Shown: in pieces, positions 6,512 to 49,930 of the stretch
How positions within the stretch are numbered: the stretch's first letter is position 1
Layout: each line of letters starts with the position of its first letter
Assembly (NCBI GenBank): GCA_028823885.1
Contig: JAPPFK010000055.1
Span: 6,971 to 70,970, forward strand
From: Rhodospirillales bacterium
GTDB lineage: Bacteria > Pseudomonadota > Alphaproteobacteria > Rhodospirillales > UBA2165
DNA length: 64,000 bases
Direction of reading: 5' to 3'
The notes under the pieces: model-generated
What the model was told of the DNA's origin: nothing
Seen by the model: the letters and a program-made list of their open reading frames with translations, nothing else
Databases searched by the model: none
Program-made: the position numbers and the translations under genes

Positions 6512-7253
6512 GGGGCTGACCGACGATCGCCTGCTCGGCGGCCGGGTTGCCCTTTATCAACCGGCGGCGGGCTACCGCGCGGCGATCGACCCGGTCCTGC
6601 TCGCGGCCTCCATCCCGGCGCGGGAGGGTCAAACGGTGCTCGAGATCGGCGCGGGCGTCGGCGGCGCGGCGCTCTGTCTGGCCGCCAGAGTCCCCGGCAT
6701 TGTCGTACACGGCCTCGAAATCCAAGCGGATTTGGTTGACGTCGCCGCGCTCAACATAGATCGGAACCACGCGGCGGGCACGGTCATCCGCCAGGCCGAC
6801 ATTCTCGCCCCGCCTGACGACCTGTTGAACGCATATGACCATGTCATGGCAAACCCTCCTCATTTGAAGGCAACTGCGGCTCGGTTGCCGCCAAATGCGG
6901 CCAAAGCGGCCGCAAATGTCGAGGGCCGCGCGGGGCTCCGGGATTGGGTGTCGATGGCCGTATCGAGGGCCGGCCCTGGTGGCACTGTTACGTTTGTCCA
7001 CCGCTTCGACCGATTGGCGGATCTCGACGATGCGTTCTCGCCGCATAGGGGTTCCATCACGGTCTTTCCTCTGTGGCGCAATGCCTCGCGGCGGCAGGCT
7101 CGACGGGTCTTGTACCGCTGGCGGAACGGCGGGCAAGGCAAACGCGCGGTCAGCGAGGGGATGATCCTCCACCGCGACGGTGGAGAATTTACCGCCCGGG
7201 CGGAGGCTGTCCTCAGGGGCGGCAACCTCATCGACATCGAACCCGGCCGGTGA
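6489..7253 (+). CDS. SAM-dependent N6-adenine methyltransferase (TrmN6/YfiC-like)
   Basis: SAM-binding LEIGAGVGGAAL and catalytic NPPH (MANPPHL) motifs. Confidence 0.7.
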   Translation: MNSTTALEGLTDDRLLGGRVALYQPAAGYRAAIDPVLLAASIPAREGQTVLEIGAGVGGAALCLAARVPGIVVHGLEIQADLVDVAALNIDRNHAAGTVIRQADILAPPDDLLNAYDHVMANPPHLKATAARLPPNAAKAAANVEGRAGLRDWVSMAVSRAGPGGTVTFVHRFDRLADLDDAFSPHRGSITVFPLWRNASRRQARRVLYRWRNGGQGKRAVSEGMILHRDGGEFTARAEAVLRGGNLIDIEPGR

Positions 7254-8828: not shown

Positions 8829-9758
<930 letters not shown>

Positions 9759-9763
9759 TCGAG

Positions 9764-11863
9764 ATGCCTGAACTTCTCTTGGAAATCCTGTCCGAGGAAA
9801 TCCCCGCCCGCATGCAGGCCCGGGCCGCCGAGGACTTGAGGCGGCTGGTGACCGGCGGCCTCGAGGAGGCCGGGCTGGCGTTCGATTCCGCCCGGGCATT
9901 CGCGACGCCGCGCCGCCTCGCGCTGGTGGTCGACGGCCTGCCGGCGAAAACCCCGGATATTTCCGAGGAACGCCGGGGACCGCGCGCCGATGCGCCCGAC
10001 CGGGCGGTGGAAGGTTTCCTGCGCGGCAACGGCATCACCAGGGATCAGGCCGAAATCCGCGAGACCGGGAAGGGGTCGTTCTACTTCGCGGTGATCGAGA
10101 AGAAGGGTGCGAAGAGCGTCGACCTGCTGCCGGAAATTCTGGCGGAAGCCATTGATGCGCTTCCCTGGCCGAAGTCCATGCGCTGGGCCGGCCGGTCCGA
10201 ACGCTGGGTCCGGCCCATTCACGGTCTCTTGTGTTTGCTTGACGGCAGGAAGGTGAGCCTTGCGCGAGGCGGGATCGAAAGCGGATCCAAGACCGTTGGC
10301 CACCGTTTCCTGGCGCCCAAGGCGTTTGCGGTGAAGGGTTTCGACGACTACGAGGCCAAGCTCCGGAATGCGAAGGTGATCCTCGATGCCGCCGAGCGCC
10401 GGGAAATTATCCTCGCCGATGCCGTCAAGCTGGCGGACGAGGCCGGTCTCAGGCTGAAGGACGATCCGGGTCTCGCCGACGAGGTGGCCGGACTGGTCGA
10501 GTGGCCGGTCACCTACATGGGCACGATCGACGGCGAATTCATGGACCTGCCGCCCGAGGTGCTCACCACCTCCATGCGGGCCCACCAGAAGTATTTCGCC
10601 CTTGAAACCACGTCCGGGGCCTTGGCGCCCAATTTCATCGTCGTCGCCAATACGGAAACCTCGGACAAGGGCAAGGCGGTGGTCGCCGGCAACGAGCGGG
10701 TGCTCCGCGCCCGGCTGGCCGACGCCAAGTTTTATTGGGATCAGGACCGTCGCGCCTCACTTCAGTCCTACAAACCGTTCTTGGAGAATTTGGTATTCCA
10801 CGCCGACGCAGGAACGGTTGCTGTGAAGATTTTTCGGATGGAGAATTTGGTCGATGTATTACTGAACAGTTTTTCGCCTGAGTTCATCAAAGGAACCTAT
10901 TCCGAGGACTACCGTGAGGCGGTTCGCCTCGCGAAGTGTGATCTTGCGTCCGGGATGGTTAGAGAGTTTCCAGAGTTGCAAGGTCTGATGGGTCGTTACT
11001 ACGCCTTGGAGGATAAGGTAAATCCCTCAGTCGCGACCGCGATCGCTGAGCATTACTCACCGAAGGGGCCTCGGGATAGTTGTCCAACAAAGCCGATAAG
11101 CGTTTTTGTTTCGCTTCTAGACAAGCTCCATGACCTTGGCGCCCTTTACGCCGTCGGTGTACGTGCCACCGGGTCCGGCGATCCATACGGCCTGAGAAGA
11201 ACCGCTCTCGGAATTATCAGGCTCATTTTGGAGAACTCCCTGCGGGTACCACTGCAAAGACTGCTCTACCTGATTGTCCGACAATATAACCCCACGGACA
11301 CGATTGAGGATGATGAGGCGATCGTGGACGAGATTTTGGACTTTATCGCCGACCGGCTAAAGGTTCATCTCCGCGAACAGGGCACCCGTCACGACCTCAT
11401 CTCGGCGGTCTTTGCGCTCGGTGGCGAGGATGATCTGGTGCGCCTCACCAAGCGGGTCTCCGCGCTCGGCAGATTCCTCGAGACCGACGACGGCGCAAGT
11501 CTGCTGACGGTCTATAAGCGGGCCGCCAACATTCTGAGAGCCGAAGAAAAGCGGGACAACACCAAATACAGTGATGAGGGGACTAACCCGCTGACGTCAC
11601 GGGAATCTGCTGAGCAGGATTTAATAGACCGCCTATGGGATGTCGGCCCCAAAATTACAAAGGCAAACGAGAACGAAGAATTTGACGAATCGATGCGTCT
11701 TTTGTCGTCTACACGACCTGACCTGGACAAATTCTTTGATAACGTCACTGTAAACGTCGAGGATTCAGAGCTTCGAGAGACACGACTTCGGATGCTTGAT
11801 TTCATCAGGAAGTCGTTCCATTACATCGCTGATTTTTCTCAAATCGAAGGGGGCGAGCGTTGA
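9764..11863 (+). CDS. glyS: glycine--tRNA ligase beta subunit
   Basis: 699 aa directly after glyQ. GlyS motifs AKCDLASGMVREFPELQGLMGRYYA and DPYGLRRTALGIIRLI. Confidence 0.95.
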   Translation: MPELLLEILSEEIPARMQARAAEDLRRLVTGGLEEAGLAFDSARAFATPRRLALVVDGLPAKTPDISEERRGPRADAPDRAVEGFLRGNGITRDQAEIRETGKGSFYFAVIEKKGAKSVDLLPEILAEAIDALPWPKSMRWAGRSERWVRPIHGLLCLLDGRKVSLARGGIESGSKTVGHRFLAPKAFAVKGFDDYEAKLRNAKVILDAAERREIILADAVKLADEAGLRLKDDPGLADEVAGLVEWPVTYMGTIDGEFMDLPPEVLTTSMRAHQKYFALETTSGALAPNFIVVANTETSDKGKAVVAGNERVLRARLADAKFYWDQDRRASLQSYKPFLENLVFHADAGTVAVKIFRMENLVDVLLNSFSPEFIKGTYSEDYREAVRLAKCDLASGMVREFPELQGLMGRYYALEDKVNPSVATAIAEHYSPKGPRDSCPTKPISVFVSLLDKLHDLGALYAVGVRATGSGDPYGLRRTALGIIRLILENSLRVPLQRLLYLIVRQYNPTDTIEDDEAIVDEILDFIADRLKVHLREQGTRHDLISAVFALGGEDDLVRLTKRVSALGRFLETDDGASLLTVYKRAANILRAEEKRDNTKYSDEGTNPLTSRESAEQDLIDRLWDVGPKITKANENEEFDESMRLLSSTRPDLDKFFDNVTVNVEDSELRETRLRMLDFIRKSFHYIADFSQIEGGER

Positions 11864-38747: not shown

Positions 38748-38767
38748 ACCGACCGGACATCAGACCC

Positions 38768-40459
38768 ATGAACGAGATCAAGCCTTCCGTCCATCCGGAC
38801 CTGAAAGCTCACCAGGACGGCATGAAGCCCCGGATCTACAAGCTGCGGGACCATATCTACTGCGCTTTCGGCTTCACGGTGGTGAACTGCACCCTGATCG
38901 AGGGTGAGGATTCCTGCATCCTCGTCGACACGATGACCGGCATGGACAATGCCGCGGTGGTCGCCGAGGAGTTCAAGAAGATCACCGACAAGCCGATCAA
39001 GACGGTGATCTACACCCACTTCCATGCCGACCATGTGAGCGGGACGCGCGCCTTTCTCACCGACGAGGAAATCTCGTCCGGCGAGGTGAAGATCATCGGC
39101 CAGGAAGAGCTCGCCGATCACGTAATGCGCGACGTCGGGCTGGTCGGACCGATCATCGGCCGGCGCGCCATGTATCAGTTCGGCATGCGGTTGCCGGTGA
39201 GCGAGGAAGGCACCGTCGGCGCCGGGCTGGGTCCGCCCCAGCGGCCCGGGCCCCGCAGTTTCGTCCCGCCCAACACCACCTTCGAAAGCGTCTACAAGGA
39301 CGAGGTCGGCGGCATCAGGTTCGAGGTCCACCTCAATCCCTCGGAAACCGAGGACCAATGCTGCGTCTGGCTGCCGGATGAAAAGGTGCTGTTGTCGGCC
39401 GACGCCATCTACGAGTCGTTTCCCAACGTCTACGCGCTCCGCGGCACCCGGTTCCGCAACCCCATGGTCTGGGCCCAGGGGATTGATCACCTGCGGGAGT
39501 TCGGGGCCGAGCTGCTGATCCCGCATCACGGCCGGCCGGTCGAAGGCGCGGAGGAGATCGACGCCTTGATGACCGAATACCGGGACGCCATTCAGTTCGT
39601 CCACGATCAGACGCTCCGCTATATGAACAAGGGCTACCGGCCGGACGAGATCAAGGAAGTCGTCGAGATGCCGGACCGGCTCAAGGATCATCCCTGGCTC
39701 GGCGAGTATTACGGCTCGTACAAGCATTCGATCCCGGCGATCTATGCCGGCTATCTCGGCTGGTATCAGGGCGATCCGGTGGCCCTGAGTCCAACGCCGT
39801 GGCGGGAAAAGGCGAAGCGCTACGTGGTGATGATGGGCGGCCGGAGCACGGTTCTCGCCAAGGCGACGGAAGCCATCGACAACGGCGACGATCAGTGGGG
39901 GGCGGAGCTCCTGACGTGGCTGATCCAGGCCGACGTCGACGACCGGGAGGCGCGCAACCTGAAAGCCCGGGCATTGCGCGCCTGGGGTTACCGGCAGAAG
40001 AACGCCACCTGGCGGAACTGGGGCCTGACCAGCGCCCTGGAGCTCGAGGGCGAACTCGATTTGGCGGGCGGCGGCATGGTGCTGGGATCACCCGATCAGG
40101 TCCGCGGGTTCCCGCTCGCCGCCATCCTCCAGGTCATGACCGTGCGGCTGAAGGCCGAAGAGGCCTGGGACACCAATCTGCGCGTGGCGTTCGAGACCAC
40201 CGACACCAACGAGGCCTGCGCGTTGGAGATCAGGCGCGGTGTCTGCCAGTTCTTCCGCGACCCGCCCGCCGAACGGGACGCGGCGATGAAGTTCTCTCGC
40301 GAGTTCCTGCTCAAGTGGGTGTTCGGGCAGACCACCCTCGACGAGGCGATCGCCGCCGGCGACGTGACCATCGACGGCGAGGCGGCGACGGTGACCGAAT
40401 TCATTTCCAAGTTCGAGGCATTCAACGAGGCGGCCGACATTTCGGTCGCGGCGCGCTAG
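38768..40459 (+). CDS. MBL-fold alkyl/aryl-sulfatase (SdsA1/YjcS-like)
   Basis: THFHADHVSG metallo-beta-lactamase motif, 563 aa, with the C-terminal dimerisation and SCP2-like region typical of type III sulfatases. Confidence 0.75.
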   Translation: MNEIKPSVHPDLKAHQDGMKPRIYKLRDHIYCAFGFTVVNCTLIEGEDSCILVDTMTGMDNAAVVAEEFKKITDKPIKTVIYTHFHADHVSGTRAFLTDEEISSGEVKIIGQEELADHVMRDVGLVGPIIGRRAMYQFGMRLPVSEEGTVGAGLGPPQRPGPRSFVPPNTTFESVYKDEVGGIRFEVHLNPSETEDQCCVWLPDEKVLLSADAIYESFPNVYALRGTRFRNPMVWAQGIDHLREFGAELLIPHHGRPVEGAEEIDALMTEYRDAIQFVHDQTLRYMNKGYRPDEIKEVVEMPDRLKDHPWLGEYYGSYKHSIPAIYAGYLGWYQGDPVALSPTPWREKAKRYVVMMGGRSTVLAKATEAIDNGDDQWGAELLTWLIQADVDDREARNLKARALRAWGYRQKNATWRNWGLTSALELEGELDLAGGGMVLGSPDQVRGFPLAAILQVMTVRLKAEEAWDTNLRVAFETTDTNEACALEIRRGVCQFFRDPPAERDAAMKFSREFLLKWVFGQTTLDEAIAAGDVTIDGEAATVTEFISKFEAFNEAADISVAAR

Positions 40460-40476
40460 AGGATCAGGAGGAAGAC

Positions 40477-41274: not shown

Positions 41275-41471
41275 CGGAAGCGTGACCGTCCGTCATGCGG
41301 GCGGTTGGGCGGGAGAAAATTGCGGCCGGCCGCCGAACTCGGCCATAAACCAACGAGAGCGGGTCAATCCGCCGGGCAAACGGACTGACAGGGACATGCG
41401 GGAGACGGGCGATCGGTAACGGGTCCCCTTCGTACGACTACATCATCGTCGGCGCCGGATCGGCGGGCTGT

Positions 41472-43049
41472 GTGCTGGCCAACCGGTTGAGCGCCGACGG
41501 GGCCAGTATATTGCTGCTGGAAGCCGGCAAGACGGATCGAAACTGGCTGATCCATGTGCCCCTCGGCGTCGGCAAAATCTGGCAGTCCCCGGCCTACAAC
41601 TGGAAGTACAACTCGGAGCCCGAGCCGGGGCTCGACAACCGCTCGGTGTGGCACCCGCGAGGCCGGGTGGTGGGCGGATCGTCGTCGATCAACATGATGG
41701 CCTATGTCCGGGGCCATCGCGCGGACTACGACCGCTGGCGGCAGAAGGGGCTCGAAGGCTGGTCCTTTGCCGACGTGCTGCCCTACTTCAAGCGCATGGA
41801 ATCCTATGACGGCGGGGCCGACGACTACCGGGGCGATTCCGGGCCGCTGCGCTGCATCGAGCATTGGGGGCAGGATCCCCTGTTCGATGCCTTCGTCGAA
41901 GCGGGCAAGGAGGCCGGATTCGGCTACACCGAGGATTTCAACGGCGCCGAGCAGGAAGGCGTCTGCCGGATGCAGTTTTCCATCGGCGACGGCAAGCGTT
42001 TTTCGTCCGCGACCGCCTATCTGCGCCCGGCGCTCAAGCGGGGCAATATCACGGTCAAGACCGGCGCCCAGGCCGCCCGAGTGGTGTTCGACGGCAACAG
42101 GGCGGCGGGCATCGACTACAAGGACGGAAGCGGCGAGGCCCGGGCCCATGCCGAGCGGGACGTGATCCTCTGCGGCGGCGCGTACAACTCTCCCCATTTG
42201 CTGATGCTGTCCGGCATCGGGCCCGCCGGCCATCTCCGGGAGATGGGCATAGAGGTGCGGGCGGACCGCGGGAATGTCGGCGAGAACCTGCAGGATCATA
42301 CGTCGGTCGGCGTCGACTATGCCTATGCCAAGCCGTCCCCCTATTATAAGTCGCTGCGCCTCGATCGGCTTGCCGTCAACATGATCCGCGCCTACGTTTT
42401 CCGCGAGGGACCTGCCACGCTGCCGCCGGGCGCCGGCACGGCTTTCCTGAAAAGCCGTCCCGAGGCCGACATTCCCGACGTCCAGATGTTCTTTCGTCCG
42501 GTGAACATGTTCGCCAAGGAATGGTTCCCGGTGATCATGCCGTCGCCGCCGGAGGGCTTTTCGCTTCGGACCTGCCATCTGCGGCCGGAAAGCCGGGGCT
42601 GGGTCAGGCTGCGCTCCGGCGATCCCTTTGATCACGCGCGGGTCTTCAATGATTTTCTGTCGACGGAAACCGACCGCCGGGCGCTCCGGGACAGCATCCG
42701 GATGATGCGCGAGATCGCCCATCAACCGGCCCTCGACGGCTATCGGGGCAAGGAGTTGGCGCCCGGCGAGGATGTTACGAGCCAGGACGGCATCGACGCC
42801 TTTATCCGCCAGACCATGATGACCGTGTTCCATCCCATCGGCACATGCCGCATGGGGTCCGACGACGCTTCTGTGGTCGATCTGGAATTCCGCGTCCGCG
42901 GGGTCGAGGGCTTACGAGTGGTCGATGCCTCGGTGATGCCCGATCTGGTGGGCGGCAATATCAATATTCCCGTGATGATGGTTGCCGAGAAAGCGTCCGA
43001 TGTGATTTTAGGAAAACCGCCTTTGCCCGCGGCGGAATTACAGGTGTGA
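41472..43049 (+). CDS. GMC family oxidoreductase (choline dehydrogenase-like); 5' end unresolved
   Basis: GMC signatures GGSSSINMMAY and HPIGTCRMG. The FAD motif YDYIIVGAGSAGC is encoded in frame upstream at 41433-41471, but no ATG, GTG or TTG precedes it. Confidence 0.85.
   Translation: MLANRLSADGASILLLEAGKTDRNWLIHVPLGVGKIWQSPAYNWKYNSEPEPGLDNRSVWHPRGRVVGGSSSINMMAYVRGHRADYDRWRQKGLEGWSFADVLPYFKRMESYDGGADDYRGDSGPLRCIEHWGQDPLFDAFVEAGKEAGFGYTEDFNGAEQEGVCRMQFSIGDGKRFSSATAYLRPALKRGNITVKTGAQAARVVFDGNRAAGIDYKDGSGEARAHAERDVILCGGAYNSPHLLMLSGIGPAGHLREMGIEVRADRGNVGENLQDHTSVGVDYAYAKPSPYYKSLRLDRLAVNMIRAYVFREGPATLPPGAGTAFLKSRPEADIPDVQMFFRPVNMFAKEWFPVIMPSPPEGFSLRTCHLRPESRGWVRLRSGDPFDHARVFNDFLSTETDRRALRDSIRMMREIAHQPALDGYRGKELAPGEDVTSQDGIDAFIRQTMMTVFHPIGTCRMGSDDASVVDLEFRVRGVEGLRVVDASVMPDLVGGNINIPVMMVAEKASDVILGKPPLPAAELQV
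42971..43035 (+). repeat. direct repeat copy A (3' end of the GMC gene)
   Basis: 55 of 65 nt identical by hand alignment to 46281-46345, at an offset of 3310 bp. Confidence 0.7.
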
Positions 43050-43216
43050 AAATGGGCGAACCGAGACCGCATTTTGCCGAAACTGGCTGCCCGGGGTGGG
43101 TGCAGGCCTATGAAAGTCAGCCGGCTTGTGGTCTCTTGCATGTAGACTTGGATAGACGGGTGCGCTGGCGCAGGCCGGCGGACCACAGGAATCATCTCTA
43201 ACAGGAGTTTTTAGAC

Positions 43217-44251
43217 ATGAAGAAAGTATTGGCAGTAACCGCACTCGCTGTGGGTGCCTCGGCCATGTTCGGGGCCACACAGGCGCAAGCAGCGGAACGT
43301 TGGACCTGTAACGTCTTTACCGGTCCCAAGCACTACGTGAACAAGGGCCTGAAGCCCTGGGGCAAGGAAGTCGGTAAAGTCACCAATGGCGAGGTCAAGA
43401 TCAACTTCCTGCCGGCCAACGCCGCTCCGCCGCCGAAGCAGTTGAACGGCATCGTCGCGGGCACATTCGACTGCGCGTTCATCTTCCATGCGTTTACGGC
43501 GAAGCAGGCCGCCGGTCCCGCCTTCGGCATCCTGCCGTTCCTGAACTCCGGCGGCGCCGAGTTGGGCGGCGCGGCCTATTGGCGGTCGTGGAAGGGAAAC
43601 TTCGAAGACAAGAAGGAATTCGACAAGCTGGGCATCAAGATCCTCAGCATGTTCCAATTCTCCCCTGTCCATTTCTTCACCGCGACGGACACGCCGATCA
43701 ACTCCATCGCCGACATGAAGAGCCAGAAAATGTGGGCGCTTGCGGGCACATCTTCCAAGACCATGAAGGTTGCCGGCGTGAGCCACGTCTCGGGCCCGGC
43801 GGCGCGTCTCGGTGAGTTTACCCAGACCAAGGTCGTTCAAGGCCTCGCCGGCATCACCCGCGGCGGCATCGTCAACTTCGCCGGCGAGCAGTTCGCGAAA
43901 CACGGGACGTTTACGGCCAACTCGATCATGATGCCGTCCTTTGCCTGGATGGTGTCGAAAAAGAAGTGGGAATCGCTGAACGGCGGCCAGAAAAAGGCGA
44001 TCGCGGCTATCTCCGGCGAAAAACTGGCCCGCAGCATCGGCCGTGCCTCCGACGCATTCGAGGAGGTTGCCAAAGTGAGGCTCGCCAAGGTCGGCATGAA
44101 GGAGCACAAGGCGACCGCGGCTTTTGAAGCGGAACTGGAGAAAGCCGGCAAGCCGCAATATGACGCGTGGTTCAAGCGTGTCAAAGCCCTGGGTGTCGAT
44201 GGCCCCAAGGTGATCGAACAGTACCAGAGCATCGTCCGGGCCGGCTCCTAA
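43217..44251 (+). CDS. dctP: TRAP transporter substrate-binding protein (DctP family)
   Basis: Signal peptide MKKVLAVTALAVGASAMFGATQAQA. 344 aa. AGGAG SD. Followed by DctQ and DctM genes. Confidence 0.8.
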   Translation: MKKVLAVTALAVGASAMFGATQAQAAERWTCNVFTGPKHYVNKGLKPWGKEVGKVTNGEVKINFLPANAAPPPKQLNGIVAGTFDCAFIFHAFTAKQAAGPAFGILPFLNSGGAELGGAAYWRSWKGNFEDKKEFDKLGIKILSMFQFSPVHFFTATDTPINSIADMKSQKMWALAGTSSKTMKVAGVSHVSGPAARLGEFTQTKVVQGLAGITRGGIVNFAGEQFAKHGTFTANSIMMPSFAWMVSKKKWESLNGGQKKAIAAISGEKLARSIGRASDAFEEVAKVRLAKVGMKEHKATAAFEAELEKAGKPQYDAWFKRVKALGVDGPKVIEQYQSIVRAGS

Positions 44252-44298
44252 ACGGCACGGGAAAGCGGGCGAATTAGATCCGCACGAAATCTGCTGAC

Positions 44299-44333
44299 GG
44301 CGGCGCCGGAAAACCGGGTTTTTCGGCGCCGCC
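44299..44333 (+). terminator. intercistronic GC-rich hairpin between dctP and dctQ (attenuator/stabiliser)
   Basis: GGCGGCGCCG-gaaaaccgggttttt-CGGCGCCGCC, a 10-bp perfect stem. Confidence 0.45.
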
Positions 44334-44386
44334 CTTAGCATCGGGGCGGGGGCAATCAACGGACCTGTGAGAGGCGGGTAATCCAC

Positions 44387-44926
44387 ATGATCGGGCTGAC
44401 TGATTTTCTGCACAAAATCATCAAGGTGCTCGCGGCGGTAGCGCTTCTGGTGATGATGGTTCTCACGTTCAGTGACGTGAACCTCCGCTATTGGCTCGGC
44501 GAACCCATCCTCGGCAGCAACGAGATGACCGAATTTCTGCTGGGGACCATCGTCTTCTCGGGTCTGGTCATCGTTTCCGGTGAGCGCTCGCACATCATGG
44601 TGACCCTGTTCGAGCCGTTCCTGATGAAGAAGATTCCCTACATCTACAGACTGCTTGGCCTGTTCACGAACATTGCCGGCATTATTGCGGTCACGCTGCT
44701 GATCGCGAACTACACCCAATTCATGCACAGCCAGGGAAACGAGACCGAAATCCGCGAATGGGAGTGGTGGTGGCTGGGCACGCTCCTGACCGCTCTGGCC
44801 GTGATCGCCATTCTCATGGCGGTCCGGTCCATACGGAGGCCGCTCAAGCAGATGGGCGCCGAGGACTTCGGCGCCGTCGACACCGGGGACGGCGCCCAAC
44901 GGCCCGAACAGGGAGGCCAGGCGTAG
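44387..44926 (+). CDS. dctQ: TRAP transporter small permease (DctQ family)
   Basis: 179 aa with four TM helices, located between dctP and dctM. Confidence 0.75.
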   Translation: MIGLTDFLHKIIKVLAAVALLVMMVLTFSDVNLRYWLGEPILGSNEMTEFLLGTIVFSGLVIVSGERSHIMVTLFEPFLMKKIPYIYRLLGLFTNIAGIIAVTLLIANYTQFMHSQGNETEIREWEWWWLGTLLTALAVIAILMAVRSIRRPLKQMGAEDFGAVDTGDGAQRPEQGGQA

Positions 44927-44928
44927 TC

Positions 44929-46257
44929 ATGGCAGTCTCACTTCTTGCATTCGTCGTCCTCCTGGGCCTGAGCTTCGTCGGCATCCCGCTGGCCTATGCG
45001 ACCCTCGCGGTCGGCTTCTTCGGTTTCTGGTACGTCCGGGGCGATTTCTTCGGCGCGGTCATTCTTTCGGGCCAGGAGATATTCGATTTTTCGACCTTGT
45101 TCGGTCTGTCGGTGGTGCCGCTGTTTATCATGATGGGAACCCTCATCCAGCGAGCCAACATTTCGGATGAACTCTTCGAGGCCGGCTATGCCTGGGTCGG
45201 AAAGTACAAGGGCGGACTCGCCATGGCGACCGTCCTGTCCTGCGCCGGCTTCTCGGCCGTTTCCGGCAGTTCGCTGGCGACGGCCGCCACTATGGCGCGG
45301 GTCGCCATGCCGCCCATGCGGAAGTACAAGTACAAGGACTCCCTGGCGTCCGGGACGCTGGCCGCCGGCGGAACGCTCGGGATCATGATCCCGCCCAGCG
45401 TGCCGATGATCATCTACGGCATCGTCACGGAAACCAATATCGGGCTGATGTTCATCGCCGGCGTGATACCGGGCATCCTGCTGACGCTTTCCTACATGGG
45501 GGCGGTGTACGGCAGCGTGCTGGTCAAGCCCGAACTCGGGCCGCCCGGGGACCCGGTCGGTTGGGCCGAACGGCGCCGGACCCTCTACAAGACCTGGCCG
45601 ATCTTCGTCCTGTTCCTGCTCGTGCTGGGCGGCATCTATCTCGGCGTGTTTACGCCGACCGAGGCGGGCGCCGTCGGTTGCGTCGGCGCGTTCATGTTTG
45701 CCTTGTCGCGCGGCCGGATGCGGACCATTCGGGAGATAATCGACGTGGCGGCCGATGCGAGCATCGTAACGGCGCGGATTTTCATTATCGGCGGCGCGGC
45801 ATTGATTTTCGGCCAATTCCTGAATTTCGCAGGCCTTTCCGGGGCCTTGGTCGACTTCACCGACGCGCTCAACCTGGGCCCGTTCACCCTGCCGCTGATG
45901 ATCTGCGTGATTTGCGTCATTTTGGGCATGATCTTCGAGAGCATCGGCATTCTGCTGCTGATCGTTCCGGTGTTCCTGCCGTCCCTCGAGGCGGTCGCCG
46001 GCGCATCCGGCATCCCGCCGGAGTTCTACCTGGTCTGGTTCGGGATCATCGTGATCATCGTCGTCGAGCTGGGCCTGATCACGCCGCCGATCGGAATCAA
46101 CGTGTTCACGGTAAAATCGGTGATTCCGGACATAGACCTGACAAAGATCTTTATCGGCGTCGTACCGTTCGTGATTGCCGATCTCGTTGTCCTGGCGCTG
46201 ATATTCCTGCTTCCGGGCCTGGCGATCTTCCTGCCATCGGTGATGCCGTCGTTTTAA
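44929..46257 (+). CDS. dctM: TRAP transporter large permease (DctM family)
   Basis: Start at MAVSLLAFVV. GGLAMATVLSCAGFSAVSGSSLATAATMA and ITPPIGINVFT parallel the first DctM. Confidence 0.9.
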   Translation: MAVSLLAFVVLLGLSFVGIPLAYATLAVGFFGFWYVRGDFFGAVILSGQEIFDFSTLFGLSVVPLFIMMGTLIQRANISDELFEAGYAWVGKYKGGLAMATVLSCAGFSAVSGSSLATAATMARVAMPPMRKYKYKDSLASGTLAAGGTLGIMIPPSVPMIIYGIVTETNIGLMFIAGVIPGILLTLSYMGAVYGSVLVKPELGPPGDPVGWAERRRTLYKTWPIFVLFLLVLGGIYLGVFTPTEAGAVGCVGAFMFALSRGRMRTIREIIDVAADASIVTARIFIIGGAALIFGQFLNFAGLSGALVDFTDALNLGPFTLPLMICVICVILGMIFESIGILLLIVPVFLPSLEAVAGASGIPPEFYLVWFGIIVIIVVELGLITPPIGINVFTVKSVIPDIDLTKIFIGVVPFVIADLVVLALIFLLPGLAIFLPSVMPSF

Positions 46258-46261
46258 CTTC

Positions 46262-46345
46262 CAGGCCGCATCGGCGTGCCGGTGATGATGGTTGCCGGAA
46301 ATGCGTCTGATGCTATTCTCGGAAATCCGCCTTTGCCCGCGGCGG
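46262..46345 (+). pseudogene. remnant of a GMC oxidoreductase 3' end (direct repeat copy B)
   Basis: Translates as GRIGVPVMMVAGNASDAILGNPPLPAA, against GGNINIPVMMVAEKASDVILGKPPLPAA at the end of the intact GMC gene. It begins right after the dctM stop, has no upstream coding part, and has lost the stop codon. Confidence 0.65.
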
Positions 46346-46370
46346 TAAAAAAAAAGGGAGGCAGGGCGTT

Positions 46371-48275
46371 ATGGGAATGGACAGCATCGTCCGTTGGAGC
46401 CGGGTGGTCGCCGACTTGTTGGCGTTGGGGCTGGCGGGGTTCGCCATTTACGTTGCCGGTTTCGGCGTGTTCGACGAGGTTTGGGTGCGCGCCGGGACGA
46501 CGGGCCTGCCCATCCTGATCTCCATTCTTTATTTCTCGTCCGAAAGCCTGGATGTGAAGCGCGACGATGTCCGCGTCGGTTCGGTGGTGCTCAACGCAGT
46601 CTTCTTTGCCGGGTTCTTCCTGATCTACTACCTGTGGATCACGTTGATGACCGAGCAGATGGACTTCTTCGTCGAGTTCACGACCTTCGACTATGCGGTG
46701 GGGTTCATGGGCGTCGGCCTCATTTTCTATCTGACGCTCCGGCATTTCGGCGTGCCCCTCTTTCTGGTCTGCCTCCTGTCGCTGCTGATCCTGTTTTTCG
46801 GCAATTTGATTCCGGGTACGCTGAATATCCCCGAGGTCAAATGGTTCCTGATTTCAGAGAAGCTCTGGTACTCCACCGACGGCGTTTTCGGCCGCCCGGT
46901 GGCGGTGGTCGGGCAGATCGTCTTGGTGTTTATCCTGTTCGGCGCCATCCTGGAAGCCAGCGGCGCCGGGGCGACATTGCTGAAATTCGCCTTTGCCGTC
47001 ACCGGTCGGCTGCGCGGCGGCCCGGCTCATGCCGCCATCGTCGGCAGCGCCAGCTTCGGGACCATGAACGGAGCCGCCGTCGCAAACGTGGTGACCACGG
47101 GCGTTTTCACCATCCCGATGATCAAGCGCACCGGGTTCCAGCCGAAGTTCGCCGGCGCCGTCGAGGCCACCGCCTCATCCGGCGGCCAGATCATGCCGCC
47201 GGTGATGGGCGCCGTCGCCTTCCTGATGGCGGACATCACCGGCATCCCCTACCTCGACATCATCGTTGCCGCGGCCATCCCGGCGCTGATGTACTACTTC
47301 AGCCTGTTTACCGTCGTGTGGCTGGAGGCCCGCAAAATGGGGCTGGAGCCGACCCCCAAGTCCGAACGCGTCAGCCTGACCGGCACCGACTGGATCCGCT
47401 CGATTTCCTTCTTCGTGCCGCTGGGCGTCATTGTCGCTGTGCTGCTGACCGGCCGCACGGCGCAAAATGCCGGATTCTACGGGCTGATCACCGCGTTTGT
47501 TCTGTCCCTGGTGCTGTATCCGGAATTTCGGTCCATCCGAGTGATTCTGCAGGCGCTGATGCGGGGCGGAAGGACATGCGCCACCATCATGATCGTGGTT
47601 GCGGCCATCGGCTTCGTCGTCGGCATGGTCAATATGTCGGGCCTCGGCATCAAGTTTGCCGCCGCCATCCTGACCATCTCCGGGGACAGTCTGTTCCTGT
47701 CGCTGGTCGTCGTGGCCATCGGCTGCCTGCTCTTGGGCATGGGCGTGCCGGTCGGCGCGGCCTACCTGATCATCGTGCTGATCATCGGTCCGGCCATCGG
47801 CAAGCTCGGTCTCTCGCTGCTGCTGACACACCTGTTCGTCATTTATTACGCGGTGCTGTCCGCCATTACACCGCCGGTTGCGGTGGCCGCGTTCGCGGCG
47901 GCGCCTATCGCCGGCTCCAAGCCCATCGAGACCGGCGTGGTCGCGGTGCGCCTCGCCATCGCCGGCTTCCTGATTCCTTTCATCTTCGTCTACCACCCCA
48001 GTGTCGTGTTGCTGGAGGAAGGCTTCAGCTACGTCGGCTTGGCCTGGGGGGTGGGTGCATTTATTTTCTCCACTGCGGCAATTGCGACATCGCTTGGCGG
48101 ATTTTCGCGGGCCGATATCGGCATTGTCCAGCGGACGGTCAGATTAATCGCGGGGGTCACCGTTTTGGTCCCCGTTCCTATGGTCGCGGCGACAAGTGCC
48201 GCGGTTATACTCGGGGCGTTCGTAGTGGAACGCATGATGGGCGCAATGCCGGTTGAGCAGCGCGCCGATAACTAA
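46371..48275 (+). CDS. TAXI-type TRAP transporter fused permease (DctQ-DctM fusion)
   Basis: 634 aa polytopic protein. GGQIMPPVMGAVAFLMA motif. Followed by a TAXI-family binding protein. Confidence 0.85.
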   Translation: MGMDSIVRWSRVVADLLALGLAGFAIYVAGFGVFDEVWVRAGTTGLPILISILYFSSESLDVKRDDVRVGSVVLNAVFFAGFFLIYYLWITLMTEQMDFFVEFTTFDYAVGFMGVGLIFYLTLRHFGVPLFLVCLLSLLILFFGNLIPGTLNIPEVKWFLISEKLWYSTDGVFGRPVAVVGQIVLVFILFGAILEASGAGATLLKFAFAVTGRLRGGPAHAAIVGSASFGTMNGAAVANVVTTGVFTIPMIKRTGFQPKFAGAVEATASSGGQIMPPVMGAVAFLMADITGIPYLDIIVAAAIPALMYYFSLFTVVWLEARKMGLEPTPKSERVSLTGTDWIRSISFFVPLGVIVAVLLTGRTAQNAGFYGLITAFVLSLVLYPEFRSIRVILQALMRGGRTCATIMIVVAAIGFVVGMVNMSGLGIKFAAAILTISGDSLFLSLVVVAIGCLLLGMGVPVGAAYLIIVLIIGPAIGKLGLSLLLTHLFVIYYAVLSAITPPVAVAAFAAAPIAGSKPIETGVVAVRLAIAGFLIPFIFVYHPSVVLLEEGFSYVGLAWGVGAFIFSTAAIATSLGGFSRADIGIVQRTVRLIAGVTVLVPVPMVAATSAAVILGAFVVERMMGAMPVEQRADN

Positions 48276-48297
48276 ACAAAACGGAGGTAAACGACCA

Positions 48298-49305
48298 ATG
48301 ATGAAACGTCTGGGACTATTTGCTGTTGCGGGTCTGCTTGCGGTGTCCATGGCCACCGCGGCGCAGGCCCAGAAGAAGCAGCTCAAGATGTCGACCATCG
48401 CGCCGGGTTCATCCATGTACCTGGTGATGACGACATTCGCCAACATCGTGAACCAAAACGTCAAAACGGTCGAAGTCACCGTCGACGCGACCGGCACGGC
48501 GACCAAGCACATGGTCGACGTGGCCCGGGAGTCCATCGACATGTCGATGACCGCGCCGTCGGTCTACGGCTGGATGAAGAACGGTTCGCGGATCTACAAG
48601 AAGCTGAAGGGCGTCAAGGAACTCGCCAAGAACCTGAATATGGTCTTCTGGTTCCCGCTCGGCGGCTATCACTATGTGACCTATGCCGATTCCGGCATCA
48701 AGACTTTGGCTGACTTGAAGGGCAAGAAGGCGTTCATCGGCCCGCCCTCCGGCGGTCAGCTGGTCAACGGACTGGCGTTCATTGCGGCCGCGACCGGCCT
48801 GTCGCCCAAGAAGGGCGACTTCAAGAGCGTCAATCTGAACTTCTCCTCGGCCTTCCAGGCCTTCCAGGACCGTCAGCTCGACGTCTACACCATCGGCTGC
48901 CTGGACCCGTGCGCCCAGCTTCAGCAGATCTCGGCCACCTCCAAGATCCGCATCCTCGGCCTTCCGAAGGAGAGCGATCTGATGGGCAACGACAGGCTGA
49001 AGAAGTTCTTCGGCGCTCCCGGCCGGCTTCCCGGCTCGATCAGCAAGGACGCCTATGGCTCCCAGCAGGTCAATGAGCACGACGTGTGGATCAACGACGC
49101 GATTCTCGGCGTCACCGTCCGCTCGACCCTTGACGCGCAGACCGTCTACAACATGGTCAAGGCGTTCTGGACGAACGTCGAGGATATCCGGAAGAGCGCG
49201 CCGTACATGAAGCAGGTCAACCTCAAGTACGCCGCCCGTCAGGAAAACATGGATTTCCATCCGGGTGCGCTGAAATTCTACAAGGAGGCCGGCGTCATCA
49301 AGTAG
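48298..49305 (+). CDS. TAXI family TRAP transporter solute-binding protein
   Basis: Signal peptide MMKRLGLFAVAGLLAVSMATAAQA. GGAGG SD. NMT1/TAXI-like layout. Confidence 0.8.
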   Translation: MMKRLGLFAVAGLLAVSMATAAQAQKKQLKMSTIAPGSSMYLVMTTFANIVNQNVKTVEVTVDATGTATKHMVDVARESIDMSMTAPSVYGWMKNGSRIYKKLKGVKELAKNLNMVFWFPLGGYHYVTYADSGIKTLADLKGKKAFIGPPSGGQLVNGLAFIAAATGLSPKKGDFKSVNLNFSSAFQAFQDRQLDVYTIGCLDPCAQLQQISATSKIRILGLPKESDLMGNDRLKKFFGAPGRLPGSISKDAYGSQQVNEHDVWINDAILGVTVRSTLDAQTVYNMVKAFWTNVEDIRKSAPYMKQVNLKYAARQENMDFHPGALKFYKEAGVIK

Positions 49306-49314
49306 CCGGCCGAC

Positions 49315-49358
49315 CGAGACCAATTGGAGGCGGTCTTCGGGCCGCCTCTTTTTGGTCT
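49315..49358. terminator. bidirectional rho-independent terminator
   Basis: Outer arms AGACCAA/TTGGTCT and inner GAGGCGG-tcttcggg-CCGCCTC, followed by TTTTT. It lies between convergent genes. Confidence 0.65.
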
Positions 49359-49787: not shown

Positions 49788-49930
49788 GGATACTTCTCCC
49801 CGGTCTGACGGCCTCACGATAGCGTGCCGGAAATTCGGACACCAAGGGGAAATGTCTGGCCAGCCGGGACGGGAGGCATAGAGTCCGAGCCAAGAACGAG
49901 AATGTTTGGGGACGTTCGGGCCGCCAATTC

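Follow-up and report, generated by a model that had tools for sequence, protein, structure and literature searches.

In a 64,000-nucleotide stretch of contig JAPPFK010000055.1 from an uncultured member of the Rhodospirillales (positions 6,971 to 70,970 of the forward strand; hereafter the window), two unrelated transporters of TRAP type, DctPQM and TAXI, are encoded one behind the other downstream of an intact gene for a GMC oxidoreductase, GMC1. As assigned by Pfam, the order on the plus strand is GMC, dctP, dctQ, dctM, a spacer of 113 nt, a gene for a fused TAXI permease and a gene for an NMT1_3/TAXI solute-binding protein (SBP), upon which a convergent 4HBT thioesterase gene follows (Table 1). 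The subject of this analysis is a piece of about 75 nt in the spacer between dctM and the TAXI permease gene which resembles the 3' end of GMC1, its relation to the intact gene and the history of the two-transporter arrangement that it marks.

A repeat search of the window recovered the 3' end of GMC1 (42969-43035, copy 1) and a part of the spacer (46279-46345, copy 2) as a direct repeat of 67 nt with 85% identity (57/67) and a spacing of 3310 nt. This bears out the initial annotation of the window, made from the sequence alone, in which 42971-43035 and 46281-46345 had been aligned by hand with 55 of 65 identical positions at an offset of 3310; equally, its statement that the repeats enclose exactly one dctP-dctQ-dctM unit is confirmed by Pfam. 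With 42900-43100 as blastn query against the whole window, copy 2 was the sole second site (E 7.6e-17, 77 bits) and the next-best match covered 24 nt (E 0.01), whereas in 200 randomisations of 40-52 kb that preserved the dinucleotide composition the best scores averaged 23.5 bits and reached at most 34.6. Chance likeness, which the initial annotation had named as an outcome that would speak against a repeat, can call upon the GC-rich composition of the sequences as the sole point in its favour; against the blastn and shuffle results, and with reading frame, C-terminal family motif and stop position all kept in relatives, it retains a negligible probability and is already refuted. A repetitive extragenic palindrome (REP)-like dispersed intergenic repeat was equally rejected, the repeat having two copies in 64 kb, one of them inside coding sequence. 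Homology beyond the GMC stop was also considered and rejected, with 8-14 scattered matches between 43050-43216 and 46351-46500 and blastn alignments ending at 43040/46350.

Translated in frame, copy 2 reads (V)PVMMVAGNASDAILGNPPLPAA, and the translation GRIGVPVMMVAGNASDAILGNPPLPAAV, correctly given in the initial annotation, lies in the reading frame of dctM. The C-termini of the GMC family run ...GGNINAPV[ML]M[VI]AEKA[SA]D[AI]ILG[NK]PPLP.AE[IV] up to the stop codon, a pattern which copy 2 with PVMMVA..ASDAILGNPPLPAA fits. Among the C-termini of 120 GMC homologues, the best match of copy 2 was the intact GMC1 of the same genus, so that the two copies are regarded as sister sequences, and no closer relative of the GMC1 3' end than copy 2 is known; the next full-length relative of GMC1 is only 64% identical. 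A GMC gene body is absent at copy 2, where no in-frame N-terminal or FAD domain lies 5' and the upstream sequence is native DctM; thus copy 2 had rightly been recognised as a GMC 3' end without its gene body that marks the joint of the DctPQM and TAXI genes. Its boundary had been placed immediately after the dctM stop (46255-46257) and has to be moved, as secure homology starts from ~46276-46279, 19-22 nt further on. The intervening 'GRIG' stretch (46264-46275) lies in an indel-rich segment and is not demonstrably GMC-derived, and among relatives the distance from the dctM stop to the remnant ranges from 5 to ~21 nt in an alignment of eight genomes. The differences between the copies, among them a Leu codon with two synonymous changes, and the remnant's DAILGN, nearer to the family consensus than the DVILGK of GMC1, give a hint of, and weakly suggest, two GMC copies that evolved separately as genes before one of them was truncated.

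The genus was sampled with the window and the genomes L001, L002, L084, L089, L096/L097, L098 and L099, the backbone of which is ~91-97% identical. In six of the eight aligned genomes (L002, L084, L089, L096, L098 and L099) the remnant keeps the native ending ...GCG GCG GAA [AG]TA TAA, that is PLPAAE[I/V] and a stop codon, and in the alignment this TAA stands opposite the stop codon of intact GMC1. It is followed in the relatives by A[AC]GGGAG[GA]CAGGGC.T.ATG, a Shine-Dalgarno sequence and the start of the TAXI permease gene, the ATG of which lies 17 nt 3' of the former stop of the remnant. In the window the stop has mutated to GTAAAA; the lack of a stop codon given in the initial annotation thus holds for the window and L001, and not for the six other genomes. 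A native GMC ending with its TAA 17 nt before the TAXI ATG indicates that a GMC copy once stood directly 5' of the TAXI genes. As read from the aligned sequences, the interpretation of 46276-46350 as the dead 3' remnant of a co-oriented GMC gene formerly placed directly 5' of the TAXI permease gene is well supported, and so is the view that the remnant is now only a spacer or 5' leader between dctM and the permease gene. What would be expected of a displaced 3' end is found here: GMC1 is intact, and a co-oriented fragment 85% identical to its end stands directly before the TAXI module. The remnant is a small molecular fossil of a time when the TAXI-TRAP genes directly followed a gene for a GMC oxidoreductase. 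Gene remnants at recombination joints are as such a known kind of feature, and this one is an ordinary trace of rearrangement; unusual are the preservation of the former operon junction, with stop, Shine-Dalgarno sequence and start, and the presence of a living model at the same locus, described below. In annotation, the dctM-TAXI spacer should be marked as a pseudogene fragment and not as an open reading frame (ORF).

Table 1. Features of the GMC-TRAP locus (positions in the window unless another genome is named)
Feature	Position	Strand	Basis or remark
GMC1, intact GMC oxidoreductase gene	41412-43049 (likely start)	+	Pfam GMC_oxred_N, GMC_oxred_C
Exact 11-mer TCGGTGATGCC (SVMP)	42930-42940 in GMC, 46237-46247 in dctM 3' end	+	same frame, offset 3307
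Repeat copy 1	42969-43035	+	coding 3' end of GMC1 (PVMMVAEKASDVILGKPPLPAA)
GMC1-dctP intergenic spacer	43050-43216	+	without detectable homology to the region 3' of the remnant
TRAP cassette	dctP 43217-44251, dctQ 44387-44926, dctM 44929-46257	+	Pfam
Junction spacer, dctM stop to remnant	46258-46275	+	indel-rich in 8-genome alignment
GMC 3' remnant (repeat copy 2)	46276-46350, core 46279-46345	+	last 24 codons and former stop position
Shine-Dalgarno GGGAGG and TAXI permease ATG	46356-46361 and 46371-46373	+	sequence; conserved in 8 genomes
TAXI-TRAP fused permease; TAXI solute-binding protein	46371-48275; 48298-49305	+	Pfam DctM, NMT1_3
Intrinsic-terminator-like hairpin	49326-49349	+	10-pair stem, then T-run
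Stacked SBP regions	L001 11883-14265; L002 11777-14266; L096 11929-14224		window counterpart 48173-49305

The order LigAB, alkylsulfatase-like gene, SIP, GMC, dctPQM, remnant and TAXI is kept in all nine genomes sampled from the genus, and neither in these nine nor in any database searched was an intact second GMC gene found, the finding which in the initial annotation would have spoken against a mobile cassette. Equally, a search of 5.8 billion proteins gave no homologue of GMC1 between 94% and 64% identity. A GMC gene directly before the TAXI permease gene, the synteny for which the initial annotation had proposed to look in related genomes, was present at 0 of 80 TAXI loci in GTDB genomes, the genus itself apart, and when JGI metagenomes were scanned for exact occurrences of the conserved core, nothing came up but LXNI01000176, which was already known, and one chance match. 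The TAXI permease of the window is 100% identical to P0241 from a Rhodospirillales metagenome-assembled genome, roughly 28 TAXI variants have 95-99% identity, and relatives of the TAXI genes at 79-83% identity (L003, L088, L090) stand in other contexts, without GMC and without remnant. GMC relatives at 63-64% identity (L093, L095) are followed by other genes. In one of them, the outgroup L093 (GMC 63%), the surroundings are collinear (LigAB-GMC-...-4HBT(-)-EamA-EamA-ABC-PBP) and an NmrA-like gene replaces both transporters; the collinear backbone with other genes in it identifies the interval between GMC and the thioesterase gene as a variable slot. As a separate observation, in L088 (7162-10893) a TAXI permease homologue (83%) stands divergent to an alkylsulfatase-like gene with 75% nucleotide identity to window 38761-40468, and no binding-protein gene follows the permease gene, which hints at a functional link of the TAXI system with the alkylsulfatase-like enzyme.

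The constraint on the remnant was assessed as the fraction of variable columns in the 8-genome alignment, with the 4-fold-degenerate sites of GMC, dctQ and dctM as neutral reference (28%). The 67 nt at the 3' end of GMC1 that are homologous to the remnant vary in 5 of 67 columns (7.5%), by which measure copy 1 is under purifying selection, and the GMC1-dctP spacer varies at the neutral rate (0.27). In the dctM-TAXI spacer 37% of the columns are variable overall, with 60% and indels in the 5' part and 17% in the 3' 47 nt (P = 0.06), and the conserved E-K of the GMC C-terminus is lost from the remnant. As the variability of the spacer is approximately neutral, the remnant behaves as a neutrally decaying fragment which, judged from this alignment, is without coding constraint and subject to at most weak constraint close to the TAXI start. 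Promoter and terminator scans of the dctM-TAXI spacer gave nothing above chance, and Rfam had no match at E <= 1 in 42800-46600. The only strong terminator between GMC1 and the end of the SBP gene is the hairpin behind the latter, so that dctPQM, remnant, TAXI permease and SBP genes may share one transcript, inside which the remnant would probably lie.

Whether the remnant is retained for a function is a matter of its retention and not of its origin. It could be a relay ORF of ~25 codons that couples TAXI translation to dctM, or a 22-nt regulatory site or RNA element; six of the eight genomes keep a start codon (ATG or GTG) together with the TAA 17 nt before the TAXI ATG, no terminator separates dctM from TAXI, the 3' part shows the low variability given above and the 22-nt core TCCGCCTTTGCCCGCGGCGGAA is invariant in all eight genomes as opposed to 28% variable 4-fold sites. 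On the other hand, the significance of the core (P ~0.016) is post hoc and marginal, the overall variability is no lower than the neutral rate, the window and L001 lack the stop and L001 also lacks the first start codon, neither an Rfam match nor a promoter-like site is found and, as read from the sequence, the short ORF has no Shine-Dalgarno sequence before it; a retained function is thus considered highly improbable. A co-opted leader would, if real, link the expression of the two TRAP-type transporters, which are unrelated to each other.

The DctPQM cassette in front of the remnant is itself undamaged. DctM homologues of 82-88% identity in unrelated contexts end ...LPS[VI]MP[SN]F like that of the window, which demonstrates a complete dctM with its native C-terminus; the possibility of a chimeric dctM, into which the remnant would reach via the 11-mer TCGGTGATGCC, was rejected on these grounds, with ...LPSVMPSF as the ending elsewhere. 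As SVMP is also native to the GMC family (DASVMPDL), the 11-mer belongs to both genes and lies outside the remnant, as a coincidence or perhaps a microhomology. The bases after the dctM stop were also compared with the convergent cyclase gene that is found 3' of dctM in relatives; a remnant of the latter was rejected for want of similarity. The closest DctPQM homologues (83-88%) adjoin this convergent cyclase gene and an alpha/beta hydrolase gene, without GMC or TAXI. The second cassette is not a recent duplicate of the first cassette of the window, since the two DctM copies are 43% and the two DctP copies 24% identical. A break in composition or codon usage against the flanks, for which the initial annotation had suggested a comparison, is not seen, the GC content at third codon positions (GC3) being uniform (0.81-0.88) throughout. 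A repeat search found no terminal inverted repeats flanking 43050-46275, and Pfam scans of 20 neighbouring ORFs, which were no dedicated search for mobility genes, revealed catabolic and transport genes and no mobility domain. Transposition of the cassette is therefore, with neither inverted repeats nor a compositional break, unlikely. As a side aspect, the genus has two alleles of part of dctP (window 43350-44250): here L001 is 93-99% identical to the window, and dctP of L002, L084 and L089 is 75-90% identical to the window inside a backbone of 93-98%, which indicates that this part of dctP was replaced by recombination.

A second scar of comparable structure, polymorphic in the genus, lies further downstream in the same locus. 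The TAXI SBP gene exists in two alleles of ~72% nucleotide identity, SBPa, which is the only one in L084, L098 and L099, and SBPb, the only one in the window and L089. In L001, L002 and L096 both are present in the order permease, SBPa, terminator, permease 3' remnant and SBPb, with a permease remnant of 100-250 nt between the stacked genes. The permease remnant of L002 is 93% identical to the 3' end of the divergent, intact permease gene of L089 and ~72% identical to the adjoining a-type permease gene, and is thus derived from the other haplotype. The stacked form, at least in L002, is consequently an a-type and a b-type haplotype joined at a non-homologous point inside the permease gene, and for this SBP event both single-SBP parents exist (L084 type and L089 type). 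Furthermore, the locus has a mosaic structure, in which identity changes abruptly within dctP, the permease gene (just after the ATG in L089) and the SBP gene; the single SBP gene of the window switches from an a-context to b-type within the conserved first 100 nt. Two side observations concern the same region. As far as the remnant, L089 and L084 share 97-100% identity, and from a few codons into the TAXI permease gene 63-70%, which places a recombination breakpoint directly beside the remnant; its permease gene (9001-10905, window 46385-48150) is a mosaic of diverged segments with 81% amino acid identity to the window. In the stacked region of L002, ~30 nt resemble the 3' end of the 4HBT gene, as judged by eye and not computed.

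With this polymorphic scar as a model, recombination between diverged haplotypes is regarded, with moderate confidence, as the process that left the dead GMC tail as a scar of stacked transporter cassettes. The locus, in which the interval from GMC to the convergent thioesterase gene is a variable slot, would have existed in two diverged versions, version 1 with GMC followed by dctPQM and version 2 with a GMC allele ~85% identical at the 3' end followed by the TAXI permease and SBP genes. Recombination would have been homologous on one side, in the shared backbone, and illegitimate on the other, where sequence just past the dctM stop would have been joined to the last 24 codons of the other GMC allele. 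As the outcome, both cassettes would stand behind one intact GMC gene, with the displaced 3' end of the other allele carried along with the TAXI genes, an event that would be older than the radiation of the sampled genus. The process would amount to a 3'-end (C-terminal) displacement by homology-facilitated illegitimate recombination or unequal crossing-over. In support of stacking, close homologues of DctPQM (83-88%) and of TAXI (79-83%) occur elsewhere without GMC and without each other. Several points weigh against this reconstruction. The parental forms, GMC-dctPQM without TAXI and GMC-TAXI without dctPQM, appear in no collection searched, so that single-module parental haplotypes are at hand for the analogous SBP event and not for the GMC event. 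The SBP parallel is an analogy and not a proof, and its clean match comes mainly from L002, as the permease remnant of L096 is 76% identical to L089 and 82-84% to a-type alleles. Equally, the hint of coding constraint before truncation rests on only ~10 differences in 24 codons, and the data agree with either direction of the event, with a homologous anchor on either side and with or without a complete second GMC gene formerly between dctM and TAXI.

Two other histories had been proposed in the initial annotation; each is only partly right, direct support is present for neither, and the favoured reading stands between them. An ancestor with the order GMC1-dctPQM-GMC2-TAXI could have suffered one deletion that began directly behind the dctM stop and took all of GMC2 except its last 24 codons, which gives an identical final structure, leaves a native C-terminus and stop right beside the TAXI ribosome-binding site and agrees with the synonymous changes and the residues near the family consensus that two formerly functional genes would show. 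Nevertheless, this deletion of a second paralogue, though possible, is unsupported, with no intact GMC2 among the nine genomes and the protein search empty between GMC1 and its 64% relatives; it needs a prior, itself unexplained event by which two GMC copies came to stand 3 kb from each other, and for the 93% match of the L002 permease remnant to the intact L089 allele haplotype recombination is the simpler, if not the only, explanation. In sum we consider paralogue deletion possible, though rather unlikely. The other proposal, an insertion that duplicated the junction, is here taken as the entry of a mobile or circular dctPQM cassette into an ancestral GMC-TAXI operon, either with a long target-site duplication or as a Campbell-type single crossover of a circle that brought a GMC 3' fragment with it; the copies would have diverged later. 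The bracketing of exactly one dctPQM unit by direct repeats stands, and close DctPQM homologues in unrelated contexts imply that the cassette has moved during evolution. Target-site duplications of transposons are short (2-14 bp) and exact and come with terminal inverted repeats and a transposase. By comparison, a duplication of ~75 nt far exceeds this size and is 85% identical, and neither flanking inverted repeats nor a break in composition (uniform GC3) nor, in the Pfam scans described, which were not designed as a mobility search, a mobility domain accompanies it, so that the characteristics of a transposon or insertion-sequence target duplication are not found. A Campbell-type circle already presupposes the GMC-dctPQM adjacency in the donor, and the consensus-like DAILGN of the remnant speaks weakly against later divergence, since GMC1 with DVILGK could be the copy that changed. 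Insertion of a mobile cassette is thus judged quite improbable, and recombination of haplotypes, inferred for the GMC event by analogy with the SBP genes, remains the favoured mechanism.

Orphaned 3' ends are known from Rhs, contact-dependent inhibition (CDI) and type VI secretion system (T6SS) effector loci, where they arise from C-terminal displacement ascribed to homology-facilitated illegitimate recombination (Kirchberger et al. 2017, PMC5361080; Jackson et al. 2009). As there, the upstream gene is intact at this locus and a promoterless, co-oriented 3' fragment lies downstream, followed by what would be the older module; one homologous and one illegitimate joint would be involved, no mobility genes appear in the ORFs scanned, and the locus holds a second, polymorphic example in the permease remnant before SBPb. 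Unlike the toxin-immunity pairs, the modules here are uptake cassettes behind a catabolic oxidoreductase gene, a single displaced end takes the place of an array, the genus is uniform for the GMC event, the parents of which are unsampled, and no selective logic comparable to the retention of immunity is evident. Homology-facilitated illegitimate recombination has also been described in natural transformation (de Vries and Wackernagel 2002; Prudhomme et al. 2002; Meier and Wackernagel 2003, as cited in PMC5361080; see also PMC3240628). The locus would share with it a one-sided homologous anchor in the backbone, an illegitimate far joint and the addition of non-homologous genes, but in contrast to those studies the mechanism is here deduced from the end product alone. 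Like ordinary gene remnants, the fragment of ~75 nt has neither gene body nor promoter, varies at a neutral rate and carries indels at one edge; unlike them, it persists in at least nine species-level genomes, still exactly before the ribosome-binding site of its former neighbour. With transposon target duplications and integron cassettes it shares the direct repeats that bracket a discrete gene cassette, and differs from them in the length and 85% identity of the repeat, in that neither inverted repeats nor an attC-like site nor a compositional break was detected, and in that the ORFs scanned held no transposase or integrase domain. In the favoured view the two-transporter arrangement would have been built by recombination and not by a mobile element, and uptake cassettes in a catabolic cluster of uncultured Rhodospirillales would have been swapped and stacked between diverged haplotypes in the manner of Rhs and T6SS toxin-immunity modules. 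The case is a modest illustration of operon growth and opens no new biological question.

Further observations concern the intact GMC1 gene, which is 94-97% identical to its genus relatives at the amino acid level. Gene callers report it as 41472-43049 with a GTG start and 525 amino acids and thereby drop the FAD-binding motif YDYIIVGAGSAG, which is located in frame at 41433, 5' of the called GTG. Window 41380-41475 contains no ATG, GTG or TTG 5' of this motif; an in-frame ATC at 41412 lies 7 codons before YDY and is preceded by GGGAGA, as aligned in five genomes, which together suggest that a non-canonical ATC at 41412 is the likely true start. At the other end of the gene, GMC1 of L002, L084, L089 and L099 ends GAA [AT]T[TA] TAG, aligned with GAA ATA TAA of the remnant, and the homology of copy 1 probably runs on through the ancestral stop position at ~43042-43044. 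The Lys/Asn codon of ...ILG[K/N]PP (window 43014-43016 in GMC1, 46324-46326 in the remnant) is AAA in GMC1 of the window, L002, L089, L096 and L098 and AAT in that of L001, L084 and L099; AAT is the state of most remnants, and the pattern in GMC1, which is at odds with the relatedness of the genomes, may be due to short-patch gene conversion with the remnant as donor or to recombination between genomes. In L098 (5114-6691) the GMC gene is called as two ORFs of 330 and 187 amino acids, which points either to a pseudogene with a frameshift or nonsense mutation or to an error of assembly.

The interval between the 4HBT thioesterase and EamA genes is another variable point of the locus. A HAD-family hydrolase gene lies there in L084 (13163-14044) and L099 (13681-14562); it is absent from the window (site ~49818-49830), L089 and L098, and L096 has an NHase_alpha-like fragment of 81 amino acids at this position.

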